This document shows positions 1,376 to 31,528 of a stretch of 64,000 nucleotides of DNA, piece by piece. The notes beneath the pieces were generated by a model that searched no databases, was not told the DNA's origin, and saw only the letters and a program-made list of their open reading frames with translations. The first letter of the stretch is position 1. Each line of letters opens with the position of its first letter. Both the position numbers and the translations under genes were made by a program. The DNA is from a plasmid: sequence record NZ_CP118944.1. One strand, given 5' to 3'.

Positions 1376-1500
1376 ACATGTTCCTTTTTCAAAATCTGAT
1401 AGCGTTCAAGACGCTTTGTTTATGAAGCTGGTTGAGATACATTTCCAGAGGTCAATGCAATCGTGGCCGAAGCGCCGCCTCAAACCAACGTTTGTGATAC
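1376..1500. promoter_or_regulatory. res / divergent promoter region between tnpA and tnpR of the Tn5393-type element
   Basis: Position between divergent tnpA and tnpR. Tn3-family res sites lie here by established architecture. Subsites not individually mapped. Confidence 0.45.
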
Positions 1501-2115
1501 ATGCTGATCGGATATGCCCGCGTCTCCAAAGCCGATGGCTCGCAGTCTCTCGACCTGCAGCACGACGCCTTGCGCGCCGCAGGTGTCGAACGGGACAATA
1601 TCTATGATGATCTTGCTTCCGGCGGTCGTGATGATCGCCCTGGCTTGACTGCCTGCCTCAAGTCATTGCGTGACGGCGATGTGCTGGTGGTCTGGAAGCT
1701 CGATCGCCTCGGACGATCGCTTGCCCATCTGGTCAACACGGTGAAGGAGCTGTCAGACCGCAAGATCGGCCTGCGGGTTCTGACTGGAAAGGGCGCTCAG
1801 ATCGACACCACGACTGCGTCCGGTCGCATGGTGTTCGGAATCTTCGCCACCTTGGCCGAGTTCGAGCGGGATCTGATCCGAGAGCGCACCATGGCGGGTC
1901 TCGCCTCCGCGAGAGCGCGCGGTCGCAAGGGCGGACGAAAATTCGCGCTCACCAAAGCTCAGGTGCGTCTCGCGCAAGCCGCCATGGCCCAGCGCGATAC
2001 TTCAGTTTCCGATCTCTGCAAGGAACTCGGCATCGAGCGCGTCACTCTCTACCGATATGTCGGTCCCAAAGGCGAGCTCAGAGACCATGGAAAGCATGTT
2101 CTCGGACTTACGTAG
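1501..2115 (+). CDS. tnpR: Serine resolvase TnpR (Tn5393-type)
   Basis: 204 aa. MLIGYARVSKADGSQSLDLQHDAL... is a resolvase catalytic N-terminus with active-site Ser, and there is a C-terminal HTH. Confidence 0.9.
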   Translation: MLIGYARVSKADGSQSLDLQHDALRAAGVERDNIYDDLASGGRDDRPGLTACLKSLRDGDVLVVWKLDRLGRSLAHLVNTVKELSDRKIGLRVLTGKGAQIDTTTASGRMVFGIFATLAEFERDLIRERTMAGLASARARGRKGGRKFALTKAQVRLAQAAMAQRDTSVSDLCKELGIERVTLYRYVGPKGELRDHGKHVLGLT

Positions 2116-2180
2116 CAACTCGTTTCTTTTCGCAGGTTGAGCCACCTCCGCGCTTCATCAGAAAACTGAAGGAACCTCCA

Positions 2181-2984
2181 TTGAATCGAACTAATATTTT
2201 TTTTGGTGAATCGCATTCTGACTGGTTGCCTGTCAGAGGCGGAGAATCTGGTGATTTTGTTTTTCGACGTGGTGACGGGCATGCCTTCGCGAAAATCGCA
2301 CCTGCTTCCCGCCGCGGTGAGCTCGCTGGAGAGCGTGACCGCCTCATTTGGCTCAAAGGTCGAGGTGTGGCTTGCCCCGAGGTGATCAACTGGCAGGAGG
2401 AACAGGAGGGTGCATGCTTGGTGATAACGGCAATTCCGGGAGTACCGGCGGCTGATCTGTCTGGAGCGGATTTGCTCAAAGCGTGGCCGTCAATGGGGCA
2501 GCAACTTGGCGCTGTTCACAGCCTATCGGTTGATCAATGTCCGTTTGAGCGCAGGCTGTCGCGAATGTTCGGACGCGCCGTTGATGTGGTGTCCCGCAAT
2601 GCCGTCAATCCCGACTTCTTACCGGACGAGGACAAGAGTACGCCGCAGCTCGATCTTTTGGCTCGTGTCGAACGAGAGCTACCGGTGCGGCTCGACCAAG
2701 AGCGCACCGATATGGTTGTTTGCCATGGTGATCCCTGCATGCCGAACTTCATGGTGGACCCTAAAACTCTTCAATGCACGGGTCTGATCGACCTTGGGCG
2801 GCTCGGAACAGCAGATCGCTATGCCGATTTGGCACTCATGATTGCTAACGCCGAAGAGAACTGGGCAGCGCCAGATGAAGCAGAGCGCGCCTTCGCTGTC
2901 CTATTCAATGTATTGGGGATCGAAGCCCCCGACCGCGAACGCCTTGCCTTCTATCTGCGATTGGACCCTCTGACTTGGGGTTGA
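2181..2984 (+). CDS. strA: Aminoglycoside 3''-phosphotransferase APH(3'')-Ib (streptomycin resistance)
   Basis: 267 aa. Sequence MNRTNIFFGESHSDWLPVRGGESGDFVFRRGDGHAFAKIAP... matches StrA as remembered. The 1-nt TGA/ATG overlap with strB is characteristic. Confidence 0.93.
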   Translation: MNRTNIFFGESHSDWLPVRGGESGDFVFRRGDGHAFAKIAPASRRGELAGERDRLIWLKGRGVACPEVINWQEEQEGACLVITAIPGVPAADLSGADLLKAWPSMGQQLGAVHSLSVDQCPFERRLSRMFGRAVDVVSRNAVNPDFLPDEDKSTPQLDLLARVERELPVRLDQERTDMVVCHGDPCMPNFMVDPKTLQCTGLIDLGRLGTADRYADLALMIANAEENWAAPDEAERAFAVLFNVLGIEAPDRERLAFYLRLDPLTWG

Positions 2985-3820
2985 TGTTCATGCCGCCTGT
3001 TTTTCCTGCTCATTGGCACGTTTCGCAACCTGTTCTCATTGCGGACACCTTTTCCAGCCTCGTTTGGAAAGTTTCATTGCCAGACGGGACTCCTGCAATC
3101 GTCAAGGGATTGAAACCTATAGAAGACATTGCTGATGAACTGCGCGGGGCCGACTATCTGGTATGGCGCAATGGGAGGGGAGCAGTCCGGTTGCTCGGTC
3201 GTGAGAACAATCTGATGTTGCTCGAATATGCCGGGGAGCGAATGCTCTCTCACATCGTTGCCGAGCACGGCGACTACCAGGCGACCGAAATTGCAGCGGA
3301 ACTAATGGCGAAGCTGTATGCCGCATCTGAGGAACCCCTGCCTTCTGCCCTTCTCCCGATCCGGGATCGCTTTGCAGCTTTGTTTCAGCGGGCGCGCGAT
3401 GATCAAAACGCAGGTTGTCAAACTGACTACGTCCACGCGGCGATTATAGCCGATCAAATGATGAGCAATGCCTCGGAACTGCGTGGGCTACATGGCGATC
3501 TGCATCATGAAAACATCATGTTCTCCAGTCGCGGCTGGCTGGTGATAGATCCCGTCGGTCTGGTCGGTGAAGTGGGCTTTGGCGCCGCCAATATGTTCTA
3601 CGATCCGGCTGACAGAGACGACCTTTGTCTCGATCCTAGACGCATTGCACAGATGGCGGACGCATTCTCTCGTGCGCTGGACGTCGATCCGCGTCGCCTG
3701 CTCGACCAGGCGTACGCTTATGGGTGCCTTTCCGCAGCTTGGAACGCGGATGGAGAAGAGGAGCAACGCGATCTAGCTATCGCGGCCGCGATCAAGCAGG
3801 TGCGACAGACGTCATACTAG
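2984..3820 (+). CDS. strB: Aminoglycoside 6-phosphotransferase APH(6)-Id (streptomycin resistance)
   Basis: 278 aa from ATG at 2984 (MFMPPVFPAHWHVSQPVLIADTFSSLVWKVSLPDGTPAIVKGLKPIED...). The ORF track starts 9 nt earlier at a TTG. Confidence 0.93.
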   Translation: MFMPPVFPAHWHVSQPVLIADTFSSLVWKVSLPDGTPAIVKGLKPIEDIADELRGADYLVWRNGRGAVRLLGRENNLMLLEYAGERMLSHIVAEHGDYQATEIAAELMAKLYAASEEPLPSALLPIRDRFAALFQRARDDQNAGCQTDYVHAAIIADQMMSNASELRGLHGDLHHENIMFSSRGWLVIDPVGLVGEVGFGAANMFYDPADRDDLCLDPRRIAQMADAFSRALDVDPRRLLDQAYAYGCLSAAWNADGEEEQRDLAIAAAIKQVRQTSY

Positions 3821-3845
3821 ATATCAAGCGACTTCTCCTATCCCC

Positions 3846-3926
3846 TGGGAACACATCAATCTTACCGGAGAATATCGTTGGCCAAAGCCTTAGCGTAGGA
3901 TTTCGCCCTCTCCCGCAAACGACCCC
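3846..3926. repeat. Terminal inverted repeat of the Tn5393-type transposon (outer end GGGGTCGTTTGCGGGAGAGGGCGAAATCC at 3926 reading inward)
   Basis: Reverse complement of 3898-3926 is GGGGTCGTTTGCGGGAGAGGGCGAAATCCTACGCTAAGGC... This is the GGGG-initiated Tn3-family end, located right after strB as in Tn5393. The 81-bp length is from memory. Confidence 0.6.
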
Positions 3927-3929
3927 ATC

Positions 3930-4451
3930 ATGCGCCCCCTCGATACCGTCCTAAAGTTTGGGGACGACGCGGCTTACAAGAGATTCCAGGCGGCAGCCAG
4001 CGCCAGGCTCCAGGAGGAAGCTATCCCCCTATACAAGGGATATGCGAAAGACAGCAGCCAGATAAAGCCGACCATCAGCTCTTTCTCCGTCGTATCCAAG
4101 AGCGACGCGCCAATGGTGGGCTATGTGGCCAATGCGATCATGACGCGCACGGTTAAACCCGAACTGCAGCTGCTCGCCGGCCACCTTATGCAGATTATCG
4201 CGCAGGAGAGCGGGGCGCCGCTCACCCCCCTGTCTGAACCGGTTCCCGGGGCGCTGGCCTTCTTGTTCGACCAGTATCTTGGCCTGTGGCATGGAAGCGG
4301 TGACCTCAAACTCTCCAAGGAGCAAAGCGAGATGCTGATGACGGAGTATGTTCACTGCTCAGATAACTGGGCGCCGCTCGGCCCCCTCTACGTGAACGCC
4401 CCCGCCCCAGGCCGGGTTCGTCGCATCTACCAGCAATCTCCGGGGAAGTGA
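3930..4451 (+). CDS. Hypothetical protein (173 aa); ORF begins 4 nt after the transposon IR
   Basis: Long ORF with no recognisable motifs. The start abuts the Tn5393 end, so it may be a 5'-truncated gene. Confidence 0.4.
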   Translation: MRPLDTVLKFGDDAAYKRFQAAASARLQEEAIPLYKGYAKDSSQIKPTISSFSVVSKSDAPMVGYVANAIMTRTVKPELQLLAGHLMQIIAQESGAPLTPLSEPVPGALAFLFDQYLGLWHGSGDLKLSKEQSEMLMTEYVHCSDNWAPLGPLYVNAPAPGRVRRIYQQSPGK

Positions 4452-4455
4452 CACG

Positions 4456-4740
4456 ATGAAGCGAATAGCGATTGCCCTATCCCTTTCCATCACGCTGGTT
4501 GCTTGTGGTGACGCCAAGGAGGAGAAGCAGCACCGCAAACCACCAGAGGAGCAGGTGATCAGTGAGCCAGCCCATGGGATTGGAGCCATTTTTGGGAAGC
4601 CAAACCCCGATTACACACCACCAGGGAGGATAGTTGATAGCCCGGACTTTAAAGTGACTCTCCCAGAGGACCGCTGGGAAGAGACCACTATCAGCAAGAA
4701 AGAGGGCAAGCCAAGCGCGGCGGTAGGTGTAGATAAGTGA
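4456..4740 (+). CDS. Small putative lipoprotein (94 aa)
   Basis: N-terminal signal peptide with lipobox LVACG (MKRIAIALSLSITLVACGD...). It starts 5 nt after the preceding ORF. Confidence 0.45.
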   Translation: MKRIAIALSLSITLVACGDAKEEKQHRKPPEEQVISEPAHGIGAIFGKPNPDYTPPGRIVDSPDFKVTLPEDRWEETTISKKEGKPSAAVGVDK

Positions 4741-5232
4741 GAGCTCGCGGGGCTGCCGCAACATGCCCAGGATAAGGGGTCGTAAAGCACGTTAAGAGAT
4801 TCGATACCCAGCAACGGCGCGGCTTTGCGCAAGCAGCTCCCCCTTAGACACAGCATTTTCGAGGTTCTCGAAACTCGGCTGTTTCAGCCGTGCAATACGA
4901 GAGTGGTTTTCGAGAAAGCAACATGCCATACCAGCACTGGCGCGGATCTGATTATCATTGAAGCCTCTCAAAAACGGTCGTTTATGAGACTTTTTACCAT
5001 GCCAATGGCTTACCGTACTTTAAATTCAGAATTCTGATGCGACCCCCTTAGTTAGTACAAAACCGTTCTAATGGACTTCATACCCCCTGATCACCCCCGT
5101 CACCGCCTGATCCCTTAGTTCGGCTGCAGGGTGAACATGGCCAGGGGCAGTGGCACTCCGCCCCTCGGTCGAATTGATGGACTCTATCGAGATCAACTTA
5201 ATAAGATGCTAAGATGGTAAGATGGTATGTTG

Positions 5233-5535
5233 TTATTTTAATTTTGCTTCCTTTATCAGGGCTGAAATAGCGGATTTAGATTGGTTTTTGAATGCTGTTA
5301 CAGCAGCTCTAACTACATCGGAACGATTGGCTCGCGCGCCACTTGAGATCATCTCTCCTCGAATTATGTCATCTATATCTCGAAGGTTTTTTTCTGAAAA
5401 AGAGATGCTGATAGGTTTTGCCTTATTAAGGATTTTTGAATTTTTAGGCTGTTCAGTGGATGCATCTATACCCGCAGAACCTCCATGTATAAAGGCTGTC
5501 TCATCACGAGAGGCTGAAGGTGTTCTATTTCTCAT
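5233..5535 (-). CDS. parG: ParG-like small partition/centromere-binding protein (ribbon-helix-helix type)
   Basis: 100 aa, immediately downstream of and overlapping the ParA-type ATPase gene. The C-terminal region has RHH-like charged/hydrophobic periodicity (ARANRSDVVRAAVTAFKNQSKSAISALIKEAK). Confidence 0.55.
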   Translation of the reverse strand: MRNRTPSASRDETAFIHGGSAGIDASTEQPKNSKILNKAKPISISFSEKNLRDIDDIIRGEMISSGARANRSDVVRAAVTAFKNQSKSAISALIKEAKLK

Positions 5536-6158
5536 AGGATGATTTCCTTCACAAGTAGTTCAATTTCTTCTTGAGCTTTAATATTTTGCGTTTCAAAAAT
5601 TGTCATGGATTCAGCCCATGCATCTCGGTGCGCTTTTCTATCACATACGCGTGAGGTGGCTAACTGCATTTCTGGAAATTCAACAAGCACTTCCGCTGCT
5701 TGGTTTGCTTCGTTGACGAACATATTTGTTGGCGTCATGTTCAAAACCAAATAGCCGCGAACATTTTCATTGAAATCTTTTGCTGCGGTAAAAACGGAAC
5801 AAGTATGAGGAACCACATCAAGATCCATTTGGGATGGTCGCAGTGGAGAGATAAACACATCTGCTGCCATAAGACCGCTCCGCATTTCCGCACTGTCACG
5901 GCCTGCACAATCAGCGATCACATAATCGTATGATAATTCATGCTCCTTTAGCATTGCTTTTATATTGCCAGTTGCACCCGTCACTGGCATATGAGGTAGG
6001 CTTTCCGGCCGGTTGTTGTACCATGTAAGAACGGATTTTTGATCATCTGCATCGACAATTAATACCCGTTTTCTGAGAGTCATTAAGTATGCTGCAATCG
6101 AGACGGCCAACGTACTTTTTCCTACTCCCCCTTTCTGACTACCCAAAACAATTATCAT
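5532..6158 (-). CDS. parF: ParF/ParA-family partition ATPase (small Walker-type)
   Basis: 208 aa. The deviant Walker A motif GSQKGGVGKST is at the N-terminus. The ~200-aa size is typical of type Ib ParA (ParF-like). Confidence 0.85.
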   Translation of the reverse strand: MIIVLGSQKGGVGKSTLAVSIAAYLMTLRKRVLIVDADDQKSVLTWYNNRPESLPHMPVTGATGNIKAMLKEHELSYDYVIADCAGRDSAEMRSGLMAADVFISPLRPSQMDLDVVPHTCSVFTAAKDFNENVRGYLVLNMTPTNMFVNEANQAAEVLVEFPEMQLATSRVCDRKAHRDAWAESMTIFETQNIKAQEEIELLVKEIIL

Positions 6159-6232
6159 AATCCCCCTCCCTATGTTGTTAACTTAACAAGTTAATAATAC
6201 AGGGATGCACTTGGATAGGCAATGCCTTGTTA

Positions 6233-6288
6233 TCTTATGATCTTGTCATCTTGTCATCTTGTCATCTTGTCATCTTGTCATCTTGGTT
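6233..6288. repeat. Iteron array: TCTTGTCA x5 perfect plus degenerate flanking copies, upstream of parF (centromere/operator candidate)
   Basis: Direct 8-bp repeats at 6241-6280 seen in sequence. Located 75-130 bp upstream of the parF start. Confidence 0.6.
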
Positions 6289-6420
6289 TGCCCCATCTGT
6301 GGGGTTGGGTGAGTTTTCTTATGTACACCCCAGATGAACCATCTAGACAGTGAGCTCCGGAAGTAGTAAAACCACTCAAAACATACCATTTTATGTAAAC
6401 CACTTAAAAGAGACCACTGC

Positions 6421-7059
6421 GTGTCCAATCGTGTTTTTGCCTATTTACGGGCCAGTACCAAAGAGCAAGATGCCCTGCGGGCTAAAGAGCCTCTTTTGCA
6501 CTTCGCGAATGAACGCCAGTTCCAAATTGATGGCTGGTTTCAAGAGCATGAAAGTGGGGCCATGTTCACGCGCCCTGAATTGTTTCGGTTGTTGGAACTG
6601 GCAAAGCCAGGTGACATCTTGCTCGTTGAGCAGGTGGATCGGCTTAGTCGACTGGATACCCCTGACTGGGAACGCCTGAAAATGCTGATCAAAGGCAAGG
6701 AGCTGCGGGTGGTTGCGCTTGATCTCCCCACCTCTTGGGCCATGCTCACGCCTTCGGCTGGTTTCCAGGAGCGGATGTTGGCCGCCATCAATGACATGAT
6801 GCTTGATATGTTGGCTGCCATCGCTCGTAAAGACTATGAGGATAGGCGTAGGCGGCAGGCCGAGGGCATTGCCAAGGCCAAGCAGGCAGGGCGATACAAA
6901 GGACGTCCAGTCGATACTGCGTTACATGACCGAGTGCGATTGGCGTTAAACAACGAATGGTCATGGTCTCAGATTGAGGCTAATTTCAAATGTTCCAGGG
7001 CAACCATTGCCAAGGTGGCAAAAGAGATGAGGGCGGCCCCTGATGCCATTCAACAATGA
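6421..7059 (+). CDS. Serine recombinase (plasmid resolvase / multimer resolution), divergent from par operon
   Basis: 212 aa. VFAYLRASTKEQD... has an N-terminal catalytic Ser motif, and there is a C-terminal HTH. Confidence 0.8.
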   Translation: MSNRVFAYLRASTKEQDALRAKEPLLHFANERQFQIDGWFQEHESGAMFTRPELFRLLELAKPGDILLVEQVDRLSRLDTPDWERLKMLIKGKELRVVALDLPTSWAMLTPSAGFQERMLAAINDMMLDMLAAIARKDYEDRRRRQAEGIAKAKQAGRYKGRPVDTALHDRVRLALNNEWSWSQIEANFKCSRATIAKVAKEMRAAPDAIQQ

Positions 7060-7659
7060 TGAAGATAATGCCTATCTGGATCTACAGCTTAAAATGGCGC
7101 TGGATAGTTGGGATCCGGCTAAGCCAAGGCGTTGGCTGGCGCGCTATGGTGGTTTACCTGGCTTAGGTATCGGAACTGGAGTCGTGGCCAAGGAATACAA
7201 GGCATTGCTAGTACAGGCTCAGGCGTTAACCCAACGAAAACGGCGCACAGATGGTGGCGATAGTTTACCCAATATCAATTATCCGCTTTGGTGATCATCG
7301 TCGTGCCACTGAATACACATGACCTTATTTACTGTACGCGCTCGGGTCAATGCTGCCCATTCATCCCTATACCGTGTTACATTTGCGCTATTTTATCCCC
7401 GCCGAATGTCCCCAGTGAGACTAAGCAGAACTTATGAAAAAACTTTCGATTGATTCACCAGAATTGGCTTCGACTTCTTTGATTGAGGAAAACATGGGGC
7501 AGTTAAAGCAGCTGTTCCCGGATGCGTTTAGTGAGGGAAAAATTGATTTTGATGTGTTAAAGCAATTGCTTGGTAGTGAAGTCGATGATAGAGAGGAGCG
7601 CTATGGCCTGAATTGGCACGGTAAGCGGCAAGCTCGGCAAATTGCATTAACACCATCTA

Positions 7660-8817
7660 AATAGCTGTTCCGAATAGTAGATCACCGGAGGAAGGGAACT
7701 CAGTCCAGTTTGTGCGATCTGATTAGTCGCTAAACAAAACAAGCCACACCCAAAGGACTGAGTTGATGCCTATCCTACCACCTCTGCCACGACCACAACG
7801 GCGCCGCATTCACAAAATCATCCATGCCACCCGTGATAAAGGACATGCTCGTCGCTTGATGGCCATCTTGCTGTTACATGAAGGACGCACGATCACCGAT
7901 GTTCATCACCTTACCGGCGCTGCGCGCTCGACCATCGGTCGTTGGCTTCGGTGGTATCGAGATGAAGGCATAGATGCGCTAGAAGCCTTACCGGCTGGCC
8001 GTGCCCCAGTCTTACCTATCGCCAAGATTGTCACCCTACTGGTGCTGCTCATGCAGTTTTCTCCGCAAGATTTTGGTTATCAGCGCAGCCGTTGGTGTAC
8101 TGAACTATTGGCTATAAAAATCAATCGGTTAACAGGGCTCAATGTGGCAGCCTCCACGCTCCGCCGATGGTTACCTCGTATGGGCATTGTCTGGCGCAGG
8201 CCCGTGCCGACCTTGCGGATAAAAGACCCAGCCTATCAGGAAAAAATGGCGAATATCGACGCCGCGCTGGCCCGCTGTGATGCCGATAATCCGGTGTTTT
8301 ATGAGGATGAAGTCGATATAGACCTCAATCCCAAATTAGGAGCCGACTGGATGTTCAGAGCGCAGCAAAAGCGGGTTGTCACACCGGGGCAGAATGCCAA
8401 GCATTATCTGGCAGGCGTTCTCCACGCAGGCAACGGAAGGGTACTTTACGTCAGCGGGATCAAGAAAAACTCATCGCTGTTTATTGCCATGCTGGAAAAG
8501 CTGCGCCACCACTACCGACGAGCCAAAACCATCACGTTGATCCTCGATAACTACATCATTCACAAAAGCAAACAGACCGAGCGATGGTTGAAGAAGAATC
8601 CCAAGTTCTGCCTGGTGTTCCAGCCAGTTTACAGCCCTTGGGTTAATCACATAGAACGGCTATGGCACAAGTTACATGAAACCATCACGCGCAATCATCA
8701 ATGCAGAGGGATGGCAAACCTGCTGGCCCGAGTGAAACACTTCATGGATACCGTGTCTCCTTTCCCGGGGAATGGCTATGGCACAGCGAAGGTGTAGCAC
8801 TATTGGGATCAGTTATT
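7660..8817 (+). mobile_element. IS630-family insertion sequence, copy 1 (1158 bp), TA duplication within CTAG target
   Basis: Identical to copy 2 at 30371-31528. Flanked by c-TA ... TA-g. Terminal imperfect IRs are AATAGCTGTTCC / GGATCAGTTATTT. CTAG target with TA duplication is the known IS630 behaviour. Confidence 0.85.
7763..8797 (+). CDS. IS630-family DDE transposase
   Basis: 344 aa. N-terminal HTH, C-terminal DDE region (…TLILDNYIIHKS…). Confidence 0.85.
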   Translation: MMPILPPLPRPQRRRIHKIIHATRDKGHARRLMAILLLHEGRTITDVHHLTGAARSTIGRWLRWYRDEGIDALEALPAGRAPVLPIAKIVTLLVLLMQFSPQDFGYQRSRWCTELLAIKINRLTGLNVAASTLRRWLPRMGIVWRRPVPTLRIKDPAYQEKMANIDAALARCDADNPVFYEDEVDIDLNPKLGADWMFRAQQKRVVTPGQNAKHYLAGVLHAGNGRVLYVSGIKKNSSLFIAMLEKLRHHYRRAKTITLILDNYIIHKSKQTERWLKKNPKFCLVFQPVYSPWVNHIERLWHKLHETITRNHQCRGMANLLARVKHFMDTVSPFPGNGYGTAKV

Positions 8818-10597
8818 TAGAGGTACGCTACGCCCATGTCAAGAAGATAGTGTGAATTGGGATAGCACACAGAACCTGATGATTGAAGGTGATAATTTAG
8901 AGGTGCTAAAGCTGTTGCAAAAGAGCTACAGCGGAAAAGTGAAGCTCATCTATATTGACCCACCGTACAACACAGGTAAAGATTTTGTTTATCCTGATAA
9001 TTTTCAGGATAATGTTCAGAACTATTTGGAATTGACAGGGCAAACTGATGGCAATGTTAAGTTAAGTACAAATACTGAAACCAGTGGGCGTTATCATACT
9101 GACTGGTTGAACATGATGTACCCGCGTTTAAAGTTGGCGCGTAATTTACTTTGTGATGATGGGGTCGTTTTTATTTCAATTGATGATTCTGAAATAGAAA
9201 ACCTTAAAGTAATATGCAATGATATATTCGGTGAAGATAATTTCATTTCAACAATATCACGGGTTATGAAAACTGGTGGGGCCAAGGGGAATTTCTTTAC
9301 TCCTAATGTTGAGTTTATTTTGGTTTATGCAAAAAAAATAATAAATGCAACTCATTTTAGAGCCCGGATAGGGGGGGAGCAAATAGCCACATATTATAAT
9401 AAGGTACAAGTCGGTGGAGAACGTGACGGCGAAGTCTATGGTGAGGAACGGTTATATAAAGCAAGCTTGGATGCAAGAGCAAATCAGCGCTATTGGGTTA
9501 AATGTCCTGATGGTTCTTTTGTTATTCCTCCGGGATCAACATTTCCTGAAAAAACTCAAGATGGAATACAAGTCACTCCGGAGCGTGGTGATGGTGTTTG
9601 GAAATGGACTTACGCTAGATATAAAGAGGAATTCTCTCAAGGTAATATAGTTTTTAAAGAAACAAGTACCTCTGCTCTTTTGGATGAAAATGGAGTGAAA
9701 TCAAAATACAACATATACAATAAACTTTGGTTGAAAGAACAGCAAGAAAAAGGTATGGTCCCAGGCAATCTAATTAGTAAGTGGGAAAATCGACAGAGTT
9801 CCGCAGAACTAAAGGATTTGGGGATACCGTTTGACTTTGCAAAACCTACCAATCTTATTAAGTATATTATTGAAATTGCCAGGGTTAATGAAAGTGATAT
9901 TGTTATGGATTTTTTCGCTGGTTCTGGCTCTGTAGGTCATGCAGTATACAAATACAATATTGAAAACTGTTCAAATTTACGTTGTATCCTTGTGCAATTG
10001 CCTGAACTTCTCTCTAGGGAGAATAAAGAGCAAAAGCAAGCTTATGATTTTTGTGTTAAGTATAAAAAATCATTTTCTATTGCTGAGCTTACCAAAGAAC
10101 GCCTCCGACGCGCCGGAGCTAAAGTCAGCGCTGACAATCCTGACTGGCAAGGTGATACCGGATTCCGCGTATTTAAGCTCGATACCTCAAATATTCGCCC
10201 ATGGTCGGCAGATGCCGCGTCGTTGGATGCACAGATGCAGGCCAGCTTGTCACCGCTGCTCGAAGATCGCTCACAGGATGATGTCATGACAGAATTGCTG
10301 CTCAAGCGCGGCATTGATTTGAGTGTCCGTCTTGAAGTGCGTGACTTTGATGGTTTACGCGTGACCTGCGCTGGTAATGGGATGTTGTTTACCTGTCTTG
10401 AATCACATATTCCTGCTTCTTCCATTGAAGCTCTGGCATCAGGGTTAACTACCTGGCATCGCGAGCTAGGGGGGAGTGCTGATGCGGTGTGTTATTTCAT
10501 TGATGAAGCATTTGAAAATAATGTTGCCAAGTCCAACCTCTGTGCCACGTTGGTGCAGCAGGGCCTCAACCAATTGCACAGTCTGTAAGGGGGCAAG

Positions 10598-13500
10598 ATG
10601 AAACTCCATTTTGAACCCGATCTTGATTATCAACTGGATGCTATTACTGCCGTGTGCGACCTGTTTGCTGGCATGGAACGTTGGCAAAATGAGATGACCG
10701 TACTGGCTCCAGTGCAAGGGGCATTGGCGCTAGAGGGGGCTACAGGGGCATCCCCGGTTAACCCAGAAATACATGATGAGGCGTGGTTACTGGCCAATAC
10801 CCAACAGGTGCAGTTGCGAAATAAACTGCCCCCGGCGGATGAGCTTGTCAGTCGGGATTTCACCGTTGAGATGGAAACTGGGACGGGGAAAACCTATGTA
10901 TATCTGCGCTCCCTGTTTGAGTTGAATCAGCGGTTCGGGATGAGCAAGTTCATTATCGTGGTGCCCTCTGTCGCCATTAAAGAGGGGGTATATAAAACCC
11001 TGCAAATAACACGGCAGCATTTTCAAAGCCTATATGCTGGCATTCCTTACGACTATTATCTTTACGACTCAACAAGGCCTGGAGATGTACGCAATTTTGC
11101 CACCAGTTCTGTGATGCAAATTATGGTAATGACGGTAGGGGCAATAAACAAAAAAGATGTTAACAAGCTCTACCAGTCGAGTGAAAAAACGACTGTTGAT
11201 GAGTTGGATAAACCAATTGACCTGATCCGTGCCACTCGTCCAGTAGTGATTGTCGATGAGCCGCAAAGTGTTGATGGTGGTCTGAACGGTGCAGGTAAAA
11301 CCGCGCTGGAGTCAATGAATTCACTGATTACTCTGCGTTATTCGGCGACCCATACCGATAAGCACCACATGTTGTATCGCCTGGATGCAGTTGACGCTTA
11401 TGAGCGTAAACTGGTCAAGCAAATTGAAGTTGCGGGAATGCAGGTCGAGAACGCCCATAACTTGGCCTATGTGAAGCTCATTTCTATGGAGAACAAACGC
11501 GGCACCATCAGGGCCACCCTTTTACTTGATGTTGAACGTCCACAAGGTGGCGTTCAACGTGAAGAGGTTATTGTTACCGATGGTAGTCGCCTTGATGACG
11601 ATACTGGTCGTGCAGTTTATGCCGATTATCGGATTGGTGAGATACGGCTGGGTAAGGGCGGATTTGTGACTCTCATTACACCGCAGGGCGAGCAGTTTTT
11701 GCAGCCAGGCGACACGGTTGGCGATGTGGAGCCCCTGACACTGCAACGGCATTTGATCCGACGAACTATTCGCGAGCATTTGGATAAAGAGTTGCGCTTG
11801 AACTCGCAAGGTATCAAGGTACTCTCGTTATTCTTCATCGACCGAGTAGACCTTTATCGCCAAGTAAATGAAGATGGCCGTCGTGAGCCTGGCGCATATG
11901 CTCGTGTATTTGAAGACGAGTACCAAGCATTATTGCGTCAACCGCTGTATGCCGCATTGCGTGAGAGCCACCCTGTACAGGCTAGTGAAGTACATGATGG
12001 TTATTTTTCTATCGATAAAAAAGGGGGATGGGAAGATACTTCTGAAAGTAATGCCAGCGGGCGTGATAACGCGGAGCGTGGTTATAACCTCATAATGAAG
12101 AACAAAGAGCGACTATTGAGCTTTTCAAACCCAGTACGCTTTTTGTTTTCGCATTCCGCCCTTAAAGAAGGGTGGGATAACCCCAATGTGTTCCAGATTT
12201 GCAGCTTGCGTGAGATGGGTAGTGAACGAGAGCGGCGGCAGACCTTGGGAAGGGGCTTACGCCTGTGTGTTAATCAGGATGGTGAGCGGATCCGGGATGA
12301 CAGTATCAATATATTGACAGTGGTTGCTAGCGAGGGATATGAAACCTACGCGGAGCAATTGCAGCAAGAAATTGAACAGGAAACCGGGATCAAATTTGGC
12401 ATTGTTACATCCACTGCATTTGCTCACTTACATATGACGATGGTGAATGGTGCCCATGAAGCGCTTGGGGCCGCAGGCTCTAATGCCCTCTGGGAAACGC
12501 TACAAGCGGATGATTATCTTAGCCGTACGGGTAAGGTAAATGATGCTCTTAAGGTTGCTCTACGTGATGCTCAGCTCACCTTGGCTCCTGAATATGAACC
12601 ACTGCGCTCTGAAATTGAACAGATCTTGAGGAAAAGCGCTGGGCGTTTGCGGATCAGTAATGCCGATGAGCGTGTCGTTATCTCTCCACGACAGGCTGTG
12701 TTGACGTCGGAGGCATTCAAACAGTTGTGGTCTCGCATTTCTCAAAAAACACAGTATCGACTGGACTTTGATGAAGAGATGCTGATCGCAGATTGCACTG
12801 CTTCATTACGTGCAATGCCGCTTATCACTCGTGCTCAAATACAGTTCAGTAAAGGGGCATTGTCTTATACCCGTGCAGGATTGGATATGCGATCAATGCC
12901 AGGAGCAACCAGTAGTCAAGTTGATGATATTGCACCGGTACTTCCAGATATTCTTGGGGTGCTTCAGGATAAAACAGGGCTTACTCGACGAAGCCTATAT
13001 CAGATATTGACTGACAGTGGCCGGTTGCGCGATTTTGTAAAAAACCCGCAACAATTTTTGACGGAGGCGATTGGTCGCCTCAATGGTTGTAAGCAACGAG
13101 CCGTTGTTGATGGGATCAAATACTACCGATTGCCGGGGGCGGTGTACGCACAGACACTCTTCACCGATAAAGAACTGACTGGGTATACCAAAAACTTATT
13201 CAATGCCGCAGCAGGAAAATCAGTGTACGAGCAAGTACCACTGGATTCACAAGGAATTGAGCGAGAGTTTGTTCAACATCTTGAGCAGCAAGATGAAGTG
13301 AAGCTTTACGCAAAGTTGCCTGGCTGGTTCAAAATCCCGACCCCGTTGGGGAGTTACAATCCTGACTGGGCGCTGGTTATTGAGCGGGATGGGGTTGAGC
13401 AGGTGTATTTTGTGGTAGAAACCAAAGGCACCCGTAACTTGGATGAGTTGCGTTTAACCGAGAAGGCTAAGATTACCTGCGGTGAGGCTCATTTTGCAGC

Positions 13501-13603
13501 TCTCAAAGCTGGGTATTCAGATCCTGCGCATTACTTGGAAGCAATGAGTGTAGCGCAGGTGATGGCTAGCGTAGATGATCTGATGACGGGGGGGGCTGGT
13601 TAG
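10598..13603 (+). CDS. res: Type III restriction endonuclease Res subunit (SF2 helicase + endonuclease)
   Basis: 1001 aa. Walker A TGTGKTYV, DEPQ box (VVIVDEPQSVD), and a helicase C region. Immediately downstream of mod as in Type III systems. Confidence 0.88.
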   Translation: MKLHFEPDLDYQLDAITAVCDLFAGMERWQNEMTVLAPVQGALALEGATGASPVNPEIHDEAWLLANTQQVQLRNKLPPADELVSRDFTVEMETGTGKTYVYLRSLFELNQRFGMSKFIIVVPSVAIKEGVYKTLQITRQHFQSLYAGIPYDYYLYDSTRPGDVRNFATSSVMQIMVMTVGAINKKDVNKLYQSSEKTTVDELDKPIDLIRATRPVVIVDEPQSVDGGLNGAGKTALESMNSLITLRYSATHTDKHHMLYRLDAVDAYERKLVKQIEVAGMQVENAHNLAYVKLISMENKRGTIRATLLLDVERPQGGVQREEVIVTDGSRLDDDTGRAVYADYRIGEIRLGKGGFVTLITPQGEQFLQPGDTVGDVEPLTLQRHLIRRTIREHLDKELRLNSQGIKVLSLFFIDRVDLYRQVNEDGRREPGAYARVFEDEYQALLRQPLYAALRESHPVQASEVHDGYFSIDKKGGWEDTSESNASGRDNAERGYNLIMKNKERLLSFSNPVRFLFSHSALKEGWDNPNVFQICSLREMGSERERRQTLGRGLRLCVNQDGERIRDDSINILTVVASEGYETYAEQLQQEIEQETGIKFGIVTSTAFAHLHMTMVNGAHEALGAAGSNALWETLQADDYLSRTGKVNDALKVALRDAQLTLAPEYEPLRSEIEQILRKSAGRLRISNADERVVISPRQAVLTSEAFKQLWSRISQKTQYRLDFDEEMLIADCTASLRAMPLITRAQIQFSKGALSYTRAGLDMRSMPGATSSQVDDIAPVLPDILGVLQDKTGLTRRSLYQILTDSGRLRDFVKNPQQFLTEAIGRLNGCKQRAVVDGIKYYRLPGAVYAQTLFTDKELTGYTKNLFNAAAGKSVYEQVPLDSQGIEREFVQHLEQQDEVKLYAKLPGWFKIPTPLGSYNPDWALVIERDGVEQVYFVVETKGTRNLDELRLTEKAKITCGEAHFAALKAGYSDPAHYLEAMSVAQVMASVDDLMTGGAG

Positions 13604-13616
13604 CCACCGCCTTTAT

Positions 13617-13650
13617 TGATGCGCTTCTGTTGAGAAGCGCATTGTATTTG
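13617..13650 (+). terminator. Rho-independent terminator candidate after res
   Basis: Perfect hairpin GCGCTTCTG-TTG-AGAAGCGC at 13621-13640 followed by a T-containing tail. Confidence 0.45.
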
Positions 13651-13967
13651 GATCCTTGCCAAGGGGGTTCTATGAAATTAGGGGAGGCTAGTAGTAGCAA
13701 ACCCTCGCTGGTAACGATCGAGGGCAAGGATTCCCTGGCTGCAGCGCAATAATCCTCGCAAGTAAGAGAAACTGTGGGAATCATCTATGGGACGGGTGTC
13801 ATTCAGATGTGCCGCTTGGCTGTGTGCGCCTGCCCAATCAGTCAACTGAATAGTAGTCGCCAAGCGGCGGCGCTACCCTACCCAAGCTGGTGATGGGATG
13901 CAAACCTAACAATCATCAATATCTCTTTTTGATTGTTCATTTTTTTATTTTGATTCTCTGTGGGCGG

Positions 13968-14297
13968 TCAGGTGATACTTTGATGGTGCTCTTCCTGGAC
14001 CCGTAGCCACTTTTGCTGTTCAGCGTTATTACCTTGCTGTTCCCAAAATCCACATATCATCCCTGCCAGCTCGGCAGCCAAGGCATGGTCACCATCGCGG
14101 CGGCTTACCAAATAATGGGATAGCCAGTTTTGATACTGTTTCAGGCTCATTTCTACGCTCTCAAATAGGTGGCGGATGCCAGGCAGGTATCCATTTCCCC
14201 AGGGTACACTGCTCTTCCCCCGCCATCCGCCATAAAAAGTTGGGTGCTTGCAGGCATGGCCTAAGCACCCACCACTATGATACAGCTTCTGCCCCAA
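13968..14297 (-). CDS. Hypothetical protein (109 aa), outside the Tn3-family IR
   Basis: ORF only; no motifs recognised. Confidence 0.25.
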   Translation of the reverse strand: MGQKLYHSGGCLGHACKHPTFYGGWRGKSSVPWGNGYLPGIRHLFESVEMSLKQYQNWLSHYLVSRRDGDHALAAELAGMICGFWEQQGNNAEQQKWLRVQEEHHQSIT

Positions 14298-14360
14298 CGT
14301 CCCAATACTGCCGCGACACCGAACAAGCTCACATCAATGCGTTGTTGCAGGAAGCTATTG

Positions 14361-14398
14361 GGGGTTGAAGTCCAATGGAACGAAAACGTACTAAGGTA
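14361..14398. repeat. 38-bp Tn3-family terminal inverted repeat (GGGGTTGAAGTCCAATGGAACGAAAACGTACTAAGGTA), outer end at 14361
   Basis: Close match to the Tn3 IR GGGGTCTGACGCTCAGTGGAACGAAAACTCACGTTAAG as remembered. Inside faces gajB/gajA/tnpR. Confidence 0.7.
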
Positions 14399-16325
14399 AG
14401 TAAGTAATTCCATTGTATACTTTCAAAGCACTTACTCTATTTCACTAATGAAACGGGATTTCTGCTGAAACCTAAGATCACCCCAAGGCATCATTCTCTG
14501 CTTAGGATAAGACACGTACAACCAACGCTTCGCTCTCGTCACCGCGACAAAAGCGTTATTCCGTTCCTCGTCAAGCTCTTTGACCGTCCTAGCCCTGTAA
14601 TCAGGAAAAACCCCTTCGCACATCCCTATCAAAAATACAATATCCTTTTCTAAACCTTTCATCGTATGCACAGTACTTAGGGTTAGGCCTTCATCTATAC
14701 TACTTTCAGAAAGTTGGCCTAATGCCAATGCATTTCTAAATGCAACCAATGAATCACCTAAGCCTTTACGCTTGAATCGGGTCCACGTACTACTAAACTC
14801 TTTAAGCTCTTCAATACTCAGTTTAACGTCTTCTATTTTATCATCCGAAACACCGTTATGGTTTTCAACCAACGATGTAAGAAGTTCATTAAAATCCTTT
14901 ACTAGTTTGGGGATTTTAGGGTTTTCAATATCTAAGTTGTCAATAGCAACAAGAAGTTTTTCGAATATCGTAGAGTACTCATCTAATGCTGATGAAATTT
15001 GAGATGCCATTTCCCGCAATACATTCGTTGTCCAGTTGGCTGGCTCAGAGATACTCAGTACTTGGCATAACTTTTTCCCATCTACCCAATCTTTAGAATT
15101 CAACTTCACCCTAATGGCATAGTCTAAGACCTTTCCGAATCTAGTTGACGGCTCAAGCTGCCTTTCTCCTTTTCTCAAAGAGTAAGGTATCGAATTATCT
15201 TCAAGGCATTTTTCAAGCTTGCCAAAAACAAATCGATTGCGGCCAATCACTACCATATTACCTAATGATATTTTTCCTTCAATATCATCGTGAATTTTTA
15301 ATGCCAAAAGATTCTTTATCGTGGCAACAACCGCAGTAGCTTCATCCTCTTCAGAATTATATTCTGAAATGCTAACTCCACCCTCTAAGGCATAATCAAT
15401 CTCTGCTTGTGAGCCTGGCCGCAACTTGTTTGCCGCACGAATAACCGACTTAGTACTGCGATAGTTTTCCTTCAGCTCAAACTTTTGAGGCATAAAATCG
15501 TTAATGAAACTTGAGCAGAAGTAGTCTTTTGATGACCCATTAAACCCATAAATCATTTGATTAGGGTCTCCTACCATCAGAATGCTTTTTATCACATCAC
15601 CGCAAAGCACCTTGATAAACTCATACTGTGCTTTATTAAGATCTTGGGCTTCATCAACACAAACATGTTTATACTGTGAGCGGTATATTTTTGCGATCCA
15701 GTCGTACGTGAGCAGTATTCGATGGGCGTACACTAAAATATCGTCATAATCGATACCCCCACTATTTAGTAGTGCAGCTTGATAGTCCTGATATATTTTC
15801 CAAATATTATTATTTTGATATAGCTCAATGACTTCCAACTCTGTAAGCAGCTCCCTTTTTATTTTCGAAAATATATCCATATAGGATTGAAGATTTCTTT
15901 CCCTGTTTTTTAGTTCCTTTGAATCGGTAATTGCTAGATATTCATCTATATTAGTGCCATCTTCACGTAAAGATTGTATAAAGACTTCCATTCGGTCTTT
16001 ATCTCTATCATATATATGCAACTCCGATGGCAAACCAACGGTATGGCCATATTTCTCCAAAACACGCTGTGCGACCGAATGAATTGTGGCGATCCAAGTT
16101 CTGTTTTCTACTTGTTCGAAGTCGATTAAACGCTCACTCATTTCTTCTGCAGCTTTATTCGTGAAGGTGAGTGCGATAACACCGTCTTTTTTTGTTTTCT
16201 CCAAAATATATCGAACACGCTCTGTTAACACTCGCGTTTTACCAGAACCTGCTGATGCAAGTACTTGAATGGCTGTATCCATAGGAGCCTCAACGATCTG
16301 GCGCTGAGCATTTGATAGATTCATA

Positions 16326-18873
<2,548 letters not shown>

Positions 18874-19416
18874 ATGCCCGTCGATTTTCTAACCTCGGAA
18901 CAGAAAGCCTGCGATAGACAATTCTCTGCCGAACCGAATGAAGTGCAATTGGCCCGTTACTTTCATCTGGATGAAGCCGACCAGGCTTTTATCAATCATC
19001 GGCACGGCAATCAGAACTGTTTTGGTGTTGCTTTGCAGTTAGGCTGCGTGCGATTTCTAGGGACCGTCATATCCAACCTGCAACATGTTCCGGTCATACA
19101 GTGCAGGCTTCCGAGCTGATCCGCTCGCTACTGAAAAGTGACCGGCCTTCCAGCCTGGCACAAGCCATCATTGAAGTGGACCGTATCAATAAGACACTTT
19201 ACTTGCTGAACTACGTAGATATATATAGGGCGTTACTACGACAAGCAAAGACGCTGGTCGGACTACGGCCCCGATAACGGGTTGCGGTTCGGGATACTGT
19301 AGCTGAGCGACAAGTCATCTACACTGAGCCCTGCGGTTTGTCCCCAGAACCGTCCGAGAACTGATTGAGGACGATGATTGCCAACGCCGTGCGGGGCTTT
19401 TTCCTTGGTTATCGGC
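18874..19416 (+). pseudogene. tnpA: Tn3-family transposase tnpA remnant (N-terminal ~80 codons fused to out-of-frame C-terminal fragments)
   Basis: MPVDFLTSEQKACDRQFSAEPNEVQLARYFHLDEADQAFINHRHGNQNCFGVALQLGCVRFLG is the canonical TnpA N-terminus. Downstream frames read …LLKSDRPSSLAQAIIEVDRINKTLYLLNYVD… and …QLNRGEGRH-like C-terminal TnpA segments, with stops and frameshifts. Confidence 0.7.
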
Positions 19417-19917
19417 CTACGGCCAGAAGGGGGATGTAAACCAAGCTGTGATAGCAGTCTTCTGCTCGTGATCCAGAACCCCCGCAGCGTCGATCATGTC
19501 GAACTGGTAATCGTTGCTTCCCAGCCAAACACCCGCTGCGAACCGGCACATAATCGCCTGTCCGTGAGATGCTGTGGCGAGATAACTATCGACCATGGGT
19601 AGGCTCAACTCGTGCTTTTCAAAGTCCCAAAGGAGTGAGAGATATGGGGCATTCTTCATCAGCCAGCTTTCAAAGCGATCTTGAGCTGGGGCACGAGACA
19701 GGATGTTTCTCTCTTCCATCTCCCGCCGAATGGCTAAGGCGGCCTCTTTGGCGGCTGGGCAGTCAGACAAAACAGTCTGAACCCAGTCCCAGTTCTTTCC
19801 TTGGGCGCACTCCAGATCTTCCAACGCGAGGCAGGCAGCAGCACAGGCAATGTCACTTCCGCCAAACCCATCCATAACAAGGCGGATCTCTTCTTTCAGA
19901 GCTTCCATATCCATCAT
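19417..19917 (-). CDS. Hypothetical protein (166 aa), downstream partner of a small HTH protein
   Basis: ORF; no family recognised. Tightly linked (15-bp gap) to the upstream 121-aa HTH gene. Confidence 0.45.
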   Translation of the reverse strand: MMDMEALKEEIRLVMDGFGGSDIACAAACLALEDLECAQGKNWDWVQTVLSDCPAAKEAALAIRREMEERNILSRAPAQDRFESWLMKNAPYLSLLWDFEKHELSLPMVDSYLATASHGQAIMCRFAAGVWLGSNDYQFDMIDAAGVLDHEQKTAITAWFTSPFWP

Positions 19918-19932
19918 TTTTCCTTAACTAAC

Positions 19933-20298
19933 TCAGTCTGCCTTCATGCGCTCTTGCACGATAGCCAGTTCATAACCGCTAATTTTCCCTGCCCCTCTAC
20001 GGTTGTCTGGGCGGGGGGGAGTTATCTCCTGACCCCGCAATACACCGCGCAGAAGCCATTCATTCAGCTCACCTACGTGGATGCCCAACACCTGGGCGGC
20101 CAGCTCTCGACTGTAACTCTGCTTGAGCAGGGCGCTATCCCTCAACTCGTCGTATGTACCGGCCTGCATCGCCAGCAGGACACGGCGGGCAAGTAACTCG
20201 GCAGCATCGCCGAAGCGCTGTTCGGTGAAGGTTACGCGCTGGCCCATGTGGGTGGCTACCCAATGCCCTTTTGCATTTCGGGCTAACCCGTTCATCAT
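19933..20298 (-). CDS. Small HTH DNA-binding protein (121 aa)
   Basis: The C-terminal half contains an HTH-like segment SRELAAQVLGIHVGELNEWLLRG (AlpA/MerR-like flavour). Confidence 0.45.
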   Translation of the reverse strand: MMNGLARNAKGHWVATHMGQRVTFTEQRFGDAAELLARRVLLAMQAGTYDELRDSALLKQSYSRELAAQVLGIHVGELNEWLLRGVLRGQEITPPRPDNRRGAGKISGYELAIVQERMKAD

Positions 20299-20343
20299 TT
20301 TTCCTCGATCAGTTGGTGAAGTACCGCTAGCACTCGCGCACCA

Positions 20344-23488: not shown

Positions 23489-23689
23489 ATGGTGACATTC
23501 GACTATCGGAGCGGCATTTTGGAAGCTGCTGATACCAAGACTGGCTATGAATGGTGTTGGTTTAAAGGGGACTCGGAGATAACGAGAAGTATTGAGGGGG
23601 AACTGGCCGGTTCGCTCAGTGTGCCCCCCGGTGCGTCGGTTGTGGCCGTTAAAACGATCATTCGTGGTGACGCCAGGGTGAGAGCGTGA
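23489..23689 (+). CDS. Hypothetical small protein (66 aa)
   Basis: Short ORF, its 3' end overlaps the IS transposase gene end. Weak. Confidence 0.2.
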   Translation: MVTFDYRSGILEAADTKTGYEWCWFKGDSEITRSIEGELAGSLSVPPGASVVAVKTIIRGDARVRA

Positions 23690-25824: not shown

Positions 25825-26248
25825 GGCATGACCGCAAGCGGTCGCGCTGTCATGCTGCGCATCGAGTCGGCGAACTGATGCCGTCTCGACCCTTCGGGTT
25901 TCCATCGCTCATGCCTACGCCTCTGCGAGGCTGCGCGCTCCGCTTGCCGCACCCGTGGCCAGCTCCATCGCGATGTCTTGCCCCTCTAAGCCCTTCACCG
26001 CCAGTCAATCTACACGCCCGGTCGTTGTGACCAGTGTTCGCGCTGCCGCCCTCCTCACCCGTTCGCACTCTCTTCGTTCGCTTGCGCTGCGGCTTGCGGG
26101 GGCGCACTGGTCTCGCCTCCCTTGGTGCGTGTTGATTTCCCTCTTCGCGGCGAAGAACTCAGAGAGGCAAATCAAATCAAGCAACGCAGTAAAGAGCCAC
26201 GGGCGCTGAACACCTAGAGCGCAGCTCAGAATCTAGAGACGCAAATGG
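25825..26248 (+). repeat. ~424-bp GC-rich structured repeat element, copy 1 (intact), directly upstream of a leading-region operon
   Basis: Near-identical to 29979-30368 plus 31531-31562. It contains a near-perfect palindrome GACCGCaaGCGGTC and many internal inverted repeats (CCGCAAGCGG / CGGCTTGCGG, GCGCGCTCCGCTTGCCGC). Confidence 0.75.
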
Positions 26249-26283
26249 GCTCAACCCCCAACACACCATCAGGAGAGGCAATC

Positions 26284-30370: not shown

Positions 30371-31528
30371 AATAGCTGTTCCGAATAGTAGATCACCGGA
30401 GGAAGGGAACTCAGTCCAGTTTGTGCGATCTGATTAGTCGCTAAACAAAACAAGCCACACCCAAAGGACTGAGTTGATGCCTATCCTACCACCTCTGCCA
30501 CGACCACAACGGCGCCGCATTCACAAAATCATCCATGCCACCCGTGATAAAGGACATGCTCGTCGCTTGATGGCCATCTTGCTGTTACATGAAGGACGCA
30601 CGATCACCGATGTTCATCACCTTACCGGCGCTGCGCGCTCGACCATCGGTCGTTGGCTTCGGTGGTATCGAGATGAAGGCATAGATGCGCTAGAAGCCTT
30701 ACCGGCTGGCCGTGCCCCAGTCTTACCTATCGCCAAGATTGTCACCCTACTGGTGCTGCTCATGCAGTTTTCTCCGCAAGATTTTGGTTATCAGCGCAGC
30801 CGTTGGTGTACTGAACTATTGGCTATAAAAATCAATCGGTTAACAGGGCTCAATGTGGCAGCCTCCACGCTCCGCCGATGGTTACCTCGTATGGGCATTG
30901 TCTGGCGCAGGCCCGTGCCGACCTTGCGGATAAAAGACCCAGCCTATCAGGAAAAAATGGCGAATATCGACGCCGCGCTGGCCCGCTGTGATGCCGATAA
31001 TCCGGTGTTTTATGAGGATGAAGTCGATATAGACCTCAATCCCAAATTAGGAGCCGACTGGATGTTCAGAGCGCAGCAAAAGCGGGTTGTCACACCGGGG
31101 CAGAATGCCAAGCATTATCTGGCAGGCGTTCTCCACGCAGGCAACGGAAGGGTACTTTACGTCAGCGGGATCAAGAAAAACTCATCGCTGTTTATTGCCA
31201 TGCTGGAAAAGCTGCGCCACCACTACCGACGAGCCAAAACCATCACGTTGATCCTCGATAACTACATCATTCACAAAAGCAAACAGACCGAGCGATGGTT
31301 GAAGAAGAATCCCAAGTTCTGCCTGGTGTTCCAGCCAGTTTACAGCCCTTGGGTTAATCACATAGAACGGCTATGGCACAAGTTACATGAAACCATCACG
31401 CGCAATCATCAATGCAGAGGGATGGCAAACCTGCTGGCCCGAGTGAAACACTTCATGGATACCGTGTCTCCTTTCCCGGGGAATGGCTATGGCACAGCGA
31501 AGGTGTAGCACTATTGGGATCAGTTATT
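30371..31528 (+). mobile_element. IS630-family insertion sequence, copy 2 (identical to copy 1, same orientation), TA duplication in CTAG
   Basis: 1158 bp, flanked by TA at 30369-30370 and 31529-31530 within a CTAG that is intact in the uninterrupted repeat copy. Confidence 0.88.
30474..31508 (+). CDS. IS630-family DDE transposase (copy 2)
   Basis: Identical 344-aa product to 7763-8797. Confidence 0.85.
   Translation: MMPILPPLPRPQRRRIHKIIHATRDKGHARRLMAILLLHEGRTITDVHHLTGAARSTIGRWLRWYRDEGIDALEALPAGRAPVLPIAKIVTLLVLLMQFSPQDFGYQRSRWCTELLAIKINRLTGLNVAASTLRRWLPRMGIVWRRPVPTLRIKDPAYQEKMANIDAALARCDADNPVFYEDEVDIDLNPKLGADWMFRAQQKRVVTPGQNAKHYLAGVLHAGNGRVLYVSGIKKNSSLFIAMLEKLRHHYRRAKTITLILDNYIIHKSKQTERWLKKNPKFCLVFQPVYSPWVNHIERLWHKLHETITRNHQCRGMANLLARVKHFMDTVSPFPGNGYGTAKV

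Follow-up and report, generated by a model that had tools for sequence, protein, structure and literature searches.

Type III systems of restriction-modification (R-M) cleave DNA in an ATP-dependent reaction that requires two inversely oriented, unmethylated sites, and their methylation affects one strand only. Interruption of the modification gene (mod) of such a system by an insertion sequence (IS), with the adjacent restriction gene (res) left intact, has a textbook precedent in phage P1. The P1 reference genome (AF234172, "P1 mod749::IS5 c1.100") carries IS5 within mod, flanked by a 4-bp target duplication, next to an intact EcoPI res; the mod749::IS5 strain is a laboratory-selected mutant and was used in PMC10067587. 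Here, we describe a natural plasmid sequence with the same arrangement, a divergent Type III mod-res locus in which mod is split by the IS630-family element ISAhy2. It lies in a 64,000-nucleotide stretch of plasmid record NZ_CP118944.1, and this whole stretch, as analyzed, is referred to below as the window.

Like the P1 locus, the window combines an IS-interrupted Type III mod, a short target duplication, an intact neighboring res, and a plasmid-like mobile replicon. The two differ in the element and its duplication (IS5 and 4 bp versus ISAhy2 and TA) and in the position hit within mod. An IS-split mod beside an intact res is thus not novel in itself.

Two further sets of described systems frame the comparison. 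The EcoP15I enzyme (PDB 4ZCF) shares with the window locus the order of Mod domains, namely, an N-terminal domain (NTD), a methyltransferase (MTase) part with DPPY, a target-recognition region (TRD), a second MTase part with FxGxG, and a C-terminal domain (CTD). It also shares the mod-then-res gene order and a Res in which an SF2 helicase precedes a C-terminal PD-(D/E)XK nuclease. It differs from the window proteins in its low overall identity, its unrelated TRD, and the length of Res (970 versus 1,001 amino acids [aa]). Among insertion sequences, IS630 of Shigella sonnei and ISY100 resemble ISAhy2 in having one DDE transposase with an N-terminal helix-turn-helix (HTH), short imperfect terminal inverted repeats, a duplicated TA, and preferential use of CTAG targets. 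The IS630 family duplicates TA and transposes by a cut-and-paste route with staggered cuts (PMC2170065).

The interrupted mod gene, its intact res partner, and ISAhy2

The mod gene spans 7434-10588 (+ strand) and is broken into two parts. The 5' fragment (7434..7659, +) comprises codons 1 to 75 together with the first base of codon 76 and is 100% identical to uninterrupted sequence on the public contigs L003 and L004. The 3' fragment (8820..10588, +), delimited from the list of open reading frames (ORFs) and from profile matches, runs from the last two bases of codon 76 to codon 664 and the stop. The initial annotation recognized the interruption correctly but placed it after codon 76; the IS enters after the first base of that codon, and its TA target consists of the third base of codon 75 and the first base of codon 76. 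Read from the ATG at 7434, the truncated ORF is 76 aa long, with 75 native residues and a junction-encoded Lys, and terminates at 7662-7664, within the IS. Both the NTD and the conserved ERYxLxWxGK motif fall in the 5' fragment. DPPY (motif IV), the TRD, FAGSGS (motif I), and the CTD are all carried by the 3' fragment, in which the longest in-frame restart begins at GTG 8852 (ORF 8852-10588, 578 codons).

When 7660-8819 (1,160 bp) was deleted in silico, a 1,995-nucleotide ORF of 664 codons was restored with its sole stop at the end, as the initial annotation had predicted, and the target ACACCATCTAGAGGTACG, a CTAG (C-TA-G), was recreated. The reconstructed Mod matched PADLOC MTase_III at 672 bits (residues 7-663 of 664) and Pfam N6_N4_Mtase at 7.2e-30 (residues 116-454). 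The proposed comparison with EcoP15I Mod (4ZCF_A) gave a phmmer match with an E value of 6.6e-54; that protein and the H. pylori Mod (6K0W) both align in two blocks that flank the TRD. The TRD itself (9257..10078, +) was delimited by comparison of alleles. With DPPY before the TRD, FxGxG after it, and a Type III NTD and CTD, the protein has the features of a beta-class amino-methyltransferase.

The res gene (10598..13603, +) starts 9 bp after mod in the same orientation, an arrangement that is retained on contigs lacking the IS, and encodes an intact protein of 1,001 aa. Over its full length, Res matched PADLOC REase_III at 1,111 bits, and its Pfam domains are ResIII, DEAD, and RE_endonuc (1e-36, residues 874-971). 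We located the motifs GTGKT at residue 95, DEPQ at residue 220, and a PD...ETK nuclease motif (PDW...ETKG) at residues 922-943, in keeping with an SF2 helicase that ends in a PD-(D/E)XK endonuclease. Both Res and Mod are distant from their EcoPI and EcoP15I counterparts (phmmer E value for Res against EcoP15I Res [4ZCF_C], 5.9e-65). The StyLTI-type equivalog model PRK15483 of NCBIfam aligns over the entire protein, yet its score of 366 bits falls short of the cutoff of 564, so Res is a member of the family and not a StyLTI/EcoP equivalog. Taken together, mod and res appear to constitute a genuine but divergent Type III system, in line with the original assignment. A G8 tract occupies the last codons of res (13588-13595, …MTGGAG and stop), where a slip would alter only a few C-terminal residues; it is invariant in the window and six relatives (L001, L002, L003, L006, L007, and L011).

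The inserted element (7660..8817, +; 1,158 bp) was identified as ISAhy2 by its identity of at least 99.8% to annotated ISAhy2 elements, the name being that of the RefSeq transposase annotation "IS630-like element ISAhy2 family" on matching records. It is flanked by a left TA (7658..7659), the center of the CTAG in the empty site of relatives, and by a right TA (8818..8819) read directly from the sequence. Imperfect terminal inverted repeats, AATAGCTGTTCCGAATAGT and AATAACTGATCCCAATAGT, span 7656-7678 and 8799-8821 and are 87% complementary. The transposase gene (7763..8797, +; 344 codons) has a probable ATG start at 7766, shares the orientation of mod, and has its stop codon 20 bp before the right end of the IS. 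Its product scored 261.6 bits against NCBIfam transpos_IS630 (cutoff, 100) and matched Pfam DDE_3 (2.5e-23) and HTH_28/32/23/33. A single DDE transposase with an N-terminal HTH, the inverted repeats, and a TA duplication within CTAG bear out the initial assignment to the IS630 family.

ISAhy2 is an already known, widespread element. Its DNA is 99.8 to 100% identical (over ∼1,165 bp) to dozens of records with an ISAhy2-annotated transposase, and matching elements occur on plasmids of Aeromonas, Klebsiella, Enterobacter, Citrobacter, and Raoultella. A literature search found no biochemical study of ISAhy2, unlike IS630 and ISY100. The window holds a second copy (30371..31528, +) at another C-TA-G site, in a noncoding or small-ORF region, and TA is duplicated there as well. 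The two copies agree at 1,158/1,158 positions, as had been stated, and the target of either reads CTAGAG.

IS-free alleles, sister alleles, and the age of the insertion

A protein search with the reconstructed Mod returned a 664-aa protein (P0001) that is 100% identical over 100% of its length. This protein is encoded on contig L003 (Logan SRR25394057, 11.9 kb), where the genes follow the order of the window: resolvase, 83-aa ORF, mod, res, gajB, gajA, and resolvase. Positions 160-1496 of L003 are 100% identical to window 6323-7659, and positions 1497-11887 match window 8820-19210 with one mismatch, a synonymous change within gajA at window position 16329. Over 11.7 kb, just three differences therefore separate the window from L003 (the IS, one TA, and a synonymous single-nucleotide polymorphism), and on this basis the insertion of ISAhy2 in mod is very recent. 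The initial annotation had proposed a recent event from the identity of the two IS copies; we consider the near-identity to L003 to be far stronger evidence.

Other relatives also lack the IS, as the initial annotation had thought worth checking. The 2,138-bp promoter-plus-mod reconstruction matched four contigs (L003, L006, L008, and L009) at 100% and without gaps, and a further five (L004, L005, L010, L012, and L014) carry uninterrupted versions that are 99.4 to 99.95% identical. The empty site was found in L001-L005. A Res protein of identical sequence is encoded by 13 public contigs, including contigs on which it adjoins an intact mod allele, which agrees with the earlier description of res as undamaged.

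We considered whether the two mod fragments might be separate genes by origin and rejected this, given that the exact fused 664-aa protein exists elsewhere uninterrupted and with the same neighbors. An assembly artifact was likewise rejected, since the junctions are precise to the base, TA is duplicated, and five independent sequences have a matching empty site. Searches for the split form and its site elsewhere gave no hits: the IS-filled left junction had 0 matches in a JGI metagenome scan, exact-product look-ups of the 76-aa, 578-aa, and 569-aa fragments returned no record, and a 24-nucleotide site-spanning sequence had 0 matches in GTDB species representatives.

A sister allele of the system was present on two plasmids from PLSDB. 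The Aeromonas hydrophila Ah2111 plasmid NZ_CP095282 encodes an intact Mod of 669 aa and a Res 99.6% identical to that of the window. The Aeromonas salmonicida 57 plasmid NZ_CP124843 (L002) carries the same allele, with mod split by the 1,530-bp ISAs21 (IS66 family) at L002 4630-6159, around codon 420, with an 8-bp target duplication and an intact res, and so differs from the window in both the IS and the codon of mod affected. A second copy of ISAs21 lies directly downstream of res in this plasmid.

Both sister plasmids share with the window the resolvase, the 83-aa ORF, mod, res, and an identical CTAG empty site, and neither has a Gabija module downstream, unlike the window. Their Res proteins are 99.5 to 99.6% identical to that of the window, and the N- and C-terminal parts of Mod are 87 to 91% identical, whereas the variable central region (window ∼9257-10078) is non-homologous and just 26% identical in aa. 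This low identity of the TRD points to a specificity different from that of the sister alleles. The window TRD has 80% aa identity to Mods encoded on Klebsiella, Enterobacter, and Salmonella chromosomes. A third TRD occurs on contigs L011 and L013, where the adjoining Res matches that of the window at 100% in protein sequence. A conserved Res combined with a shuffled TRD is typical of Type III mod genes, an example being PMC1557822.

Probable loss of function, chance, and selection

Mutagenesis of EcoP1 produced solely r-m- or r-m+ phenotypes (where r and m denote restriction and modification), with r-m- resulting from the loss of mod, and Mod recognizes the site, positions Res, and raises the level of Res, apparently by stabilizing it (reviewed in PMC3874151). 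In EcoP15I, the NTDs (aa 14-60) of two Mod protomers intertwine as part of the Mod2 interface, and the dimer is obligatory, with one protomer reading the sequence and the other methylating (PMC4490356). Across 82 distant homologues of the window Mod, residues 21-76 and 77-86 have identities to the query of 0.66 and 0.75, respectively. Residues 21-86 are thus about as conserved as the N-terminal core of the MTase domain (residues 87-205; 0.75), and the ERYxLxWxGK motif is nearly invariant.

By analogy with these enzymes, the insertion very probably abolished both modification and restriction without passing through a lethal intermediate, and the silencing of restriction that the initial annotation had proposed agrees with EcoP1/EcoP15 genetics. 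ISAhy2, a cut-and-paste element of the IS630/Tc1-mariner type that targets the TA of CTAG, landed one base into codon 76 of mod. This precise, TA-duplicating insertion cuts Mod to 75 native residues, and all else, res included, is the same as on IS-free copies of the island. A functional Mod2 dimer would then not be made, and Res, which relies on Mod to find its site and to remain stable, would be inactive, so that the cell would become both m- and r- and the lethal r+m- state would be avoided.

Several observations weigh against a complete loss. The transposase gene is co-oriented with mod, and read-through past its stop near the IS end could transcribe the mod remnant and res. GTG 8852 lies in frame after a weak Shine-Dalgarno-like AAGAAG, which makes possible a 578-aa product that would lack none of the catalytic motifs and would retain the TRD and CTD. 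In principle, Res could also pair with a compatible Mod from another locus of the host. A consensus promoter scan of 7200-10700 was uninformative (4 sites versus 6.2 expected from shuffles).

These points can be joined into an account of partial function, in which read-through from the transposase gene or from the mod promoter, followed by a restart at GTG 8852 or ATG 8879, yields a working N-truncated Mod of 578 or 569 aa. This protein would methylate DNA and support Res, and the IS would rewire expression of the system instead of killing it. The lack of a convincing terminator after the transposase stop and the retention of DPPY, FAGSGS, and a Res-contacting CTD in the 578-aa ORF are compatible with this account. 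However, based on alignment to EcoP15I, a restart at GTG 8852 removes the NTD completely, along with ∼25 residues at the start of the MTase domain; the lost region forms part of the obligatory dimer interface, is strongly conserved, and includes the near-invariant motif. The ribosome-binding sequence before the GTG is poor as well, and P1 mod749::IS5 is treated in the literature as a mod mutant. We therefore regard a working truncated Mod as highly improbable and favor the combined loss of both activities.

Whether that loss was selected is a separate matter. CTAG occurs in the window roughly four times less often than base composition predicts (58 sites versus 239 expected), and this scarcity limits the places where ISAhy2 can land. 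Four of the 58 sites fall in mod and another four in res, giving a neutral insertion into the window a ∼7% chance of hitting mod and an equal chance of hitting res. With such a chance per insertion and two copies present, a selective explanation is not needed. The initial annotation had called the inactivation route biologically sensible, which does not imply selection. In the simplest view, the event would be an accident of where the IS landed, neutral or slightly advantageous, and not a designed switch. For reversion, the segment from one TA to the other would have to be deleted precisely, a rare event, and exact reversion would not be an intrinsic outcome for a family that moves by cut and paste with staggered cuts.

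The alternative is that inactivation was selected or is switch-like, with lesions in mod being favored as a way of turning the system off, recurring, and in some cases being reversible. Possible motives are easier establishment of a conjugative plasmid in unmethylated hosts or contingency (phase-variable) behavior. Among relatives with Res at least 99.5% identical, mod carries three independent lesions and res carries no lesion. The three are the ISAhy2 of the window, the ISAs21 of NZ_CP124843, and a G7-to-G8 frameshift on the metagenome contig L007 (DRR477421). On L007, G8 at ∼1992 splits mod into ORFs of 268 and 373 aa beside an identical Res. Type III mod genes are, moreover, classic phase-variable loci (PMC5909438).

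This sample is small and biased, however, since ten contigs were retrieved through exact Res identity, a procedure that excludes res lesions by construction. Phasevarion mod genes have a long simple-sequence repeat whose length differs among isolates and shifts the frame; the sole tract here, G7 in mod (9371-9377, codons for R-I-G-G-E), is short for efficient phase variation, and G8, seen in 1 of ∼11 related contigs, could reflect either low-grade phase variation or an assembly error. The ISAhy2 event is itself explicable by chance, given the equal numbers of CTAG sites in mod and res, and excision of IS630-family elements is not inherently precise. In a survey of 80 Res homologues from species representatives, mod was continuous at nearly all loci, and apparent disruptions numbered ∼1 for mod and ∼2 for res, a set whose bias and small size do not allow a preference for mod lesions to be demonstrated. 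Selected or switch-like inactivation is, in our judgment, very unlikely, and we retain an accident of IS targeting as the simpler reading.

The same survey brought to light possible frameshifted Type III genes elsewhere. In L015 (Pluralibacter gergoviae ATCC 33028), the N- and C-terminal parts of mod are in different frames, and in L072 and L073, res is split between frames.

Plasmid context and meaning of the finding

The mod-res pair belongs to a defense island with the order resolvase, 83-aa ORF, Type III mod-res, Gabija, and second resolvase. For the remainder, the window is made up of an F-type transfer region that is 97 to 98.5% identical to conjugative plasmids of A. salmonicida (70 to 76 kb), and the plasmid is a conjugative Aeromonas-type (MOBF/MPF_F) replicon that carries a defense island. 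The first resolvase gene lies at 6421-7059. The 83-aa ORF (7043-7294), between this gene and mod, overlaps the resolvase stop and is kept in every related contig and plasmid; it has no Pfam match and could be a regulator of the island.

Immediately downstream of res, a complete Gabija module and the second resolvase gene occupy 14432-18726 (-). The module consists of gajB (14432-16324, -; PADLOC GajB, 955 bits) and gajA (16326-18149, -), whose product has AAA_15, DUF2813, and OLD-like TOPRIM domains, and the resolvase gene follows at 18154-18726 (-). Because NZ_CP095282, a sister plasmid, lacks Gabija, this module behaves like a cassette of its own within the island.

Further defense and mobile-element genes lie beside the island. 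An AbiEii toxin gene (20344-21309, -) was located within 19417-21309, and a gene for an IS4/IS5-type DDE_Tnp_1 transposase at 23658-24857 (-); both add to the defense and mobile-element load there. In contig L006 and plasmid NZ_CP095282, a DUF6088 partner gene adjoins AbiEii. A gene set that looks like a leading-region group with anti-restriction roles (26245-29383) encodes a 698-aa polyvalent protein (LPD25, LPD29, and DUF3560) and a 278-aa orphan N6_N4 DNA methyltransferase, and the second ISAhy2 copy is situated just downstream of it.

Both mod fragments are to be annotated as a single IS-disrupted pseudogene, and res should not count as an active defense system of the plasmid. The effective defense repertoire of the plasmid is probably Gabija plus AbiE, without Type III restriction.

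A broader proposition is that this plasmid-borne family has been repeatedly silenced through mod by selection while Res stayed invariant, which we consider unlikely. If it were true, the pattern would reflect selection on conjugative plasmids for safe silencing of restriction upon entry into unmethylated hosts, and the intact res would stay available for reactivation through loss of the IS or through recombination with another mod or TRD allele. The mod::ISAhy2 finding opens no long-standing question. It offers a clean, datable natural example of the erosion of a defense island by an IS630-family element at a rare CTAG, with the IS-free progenitor available in public data.

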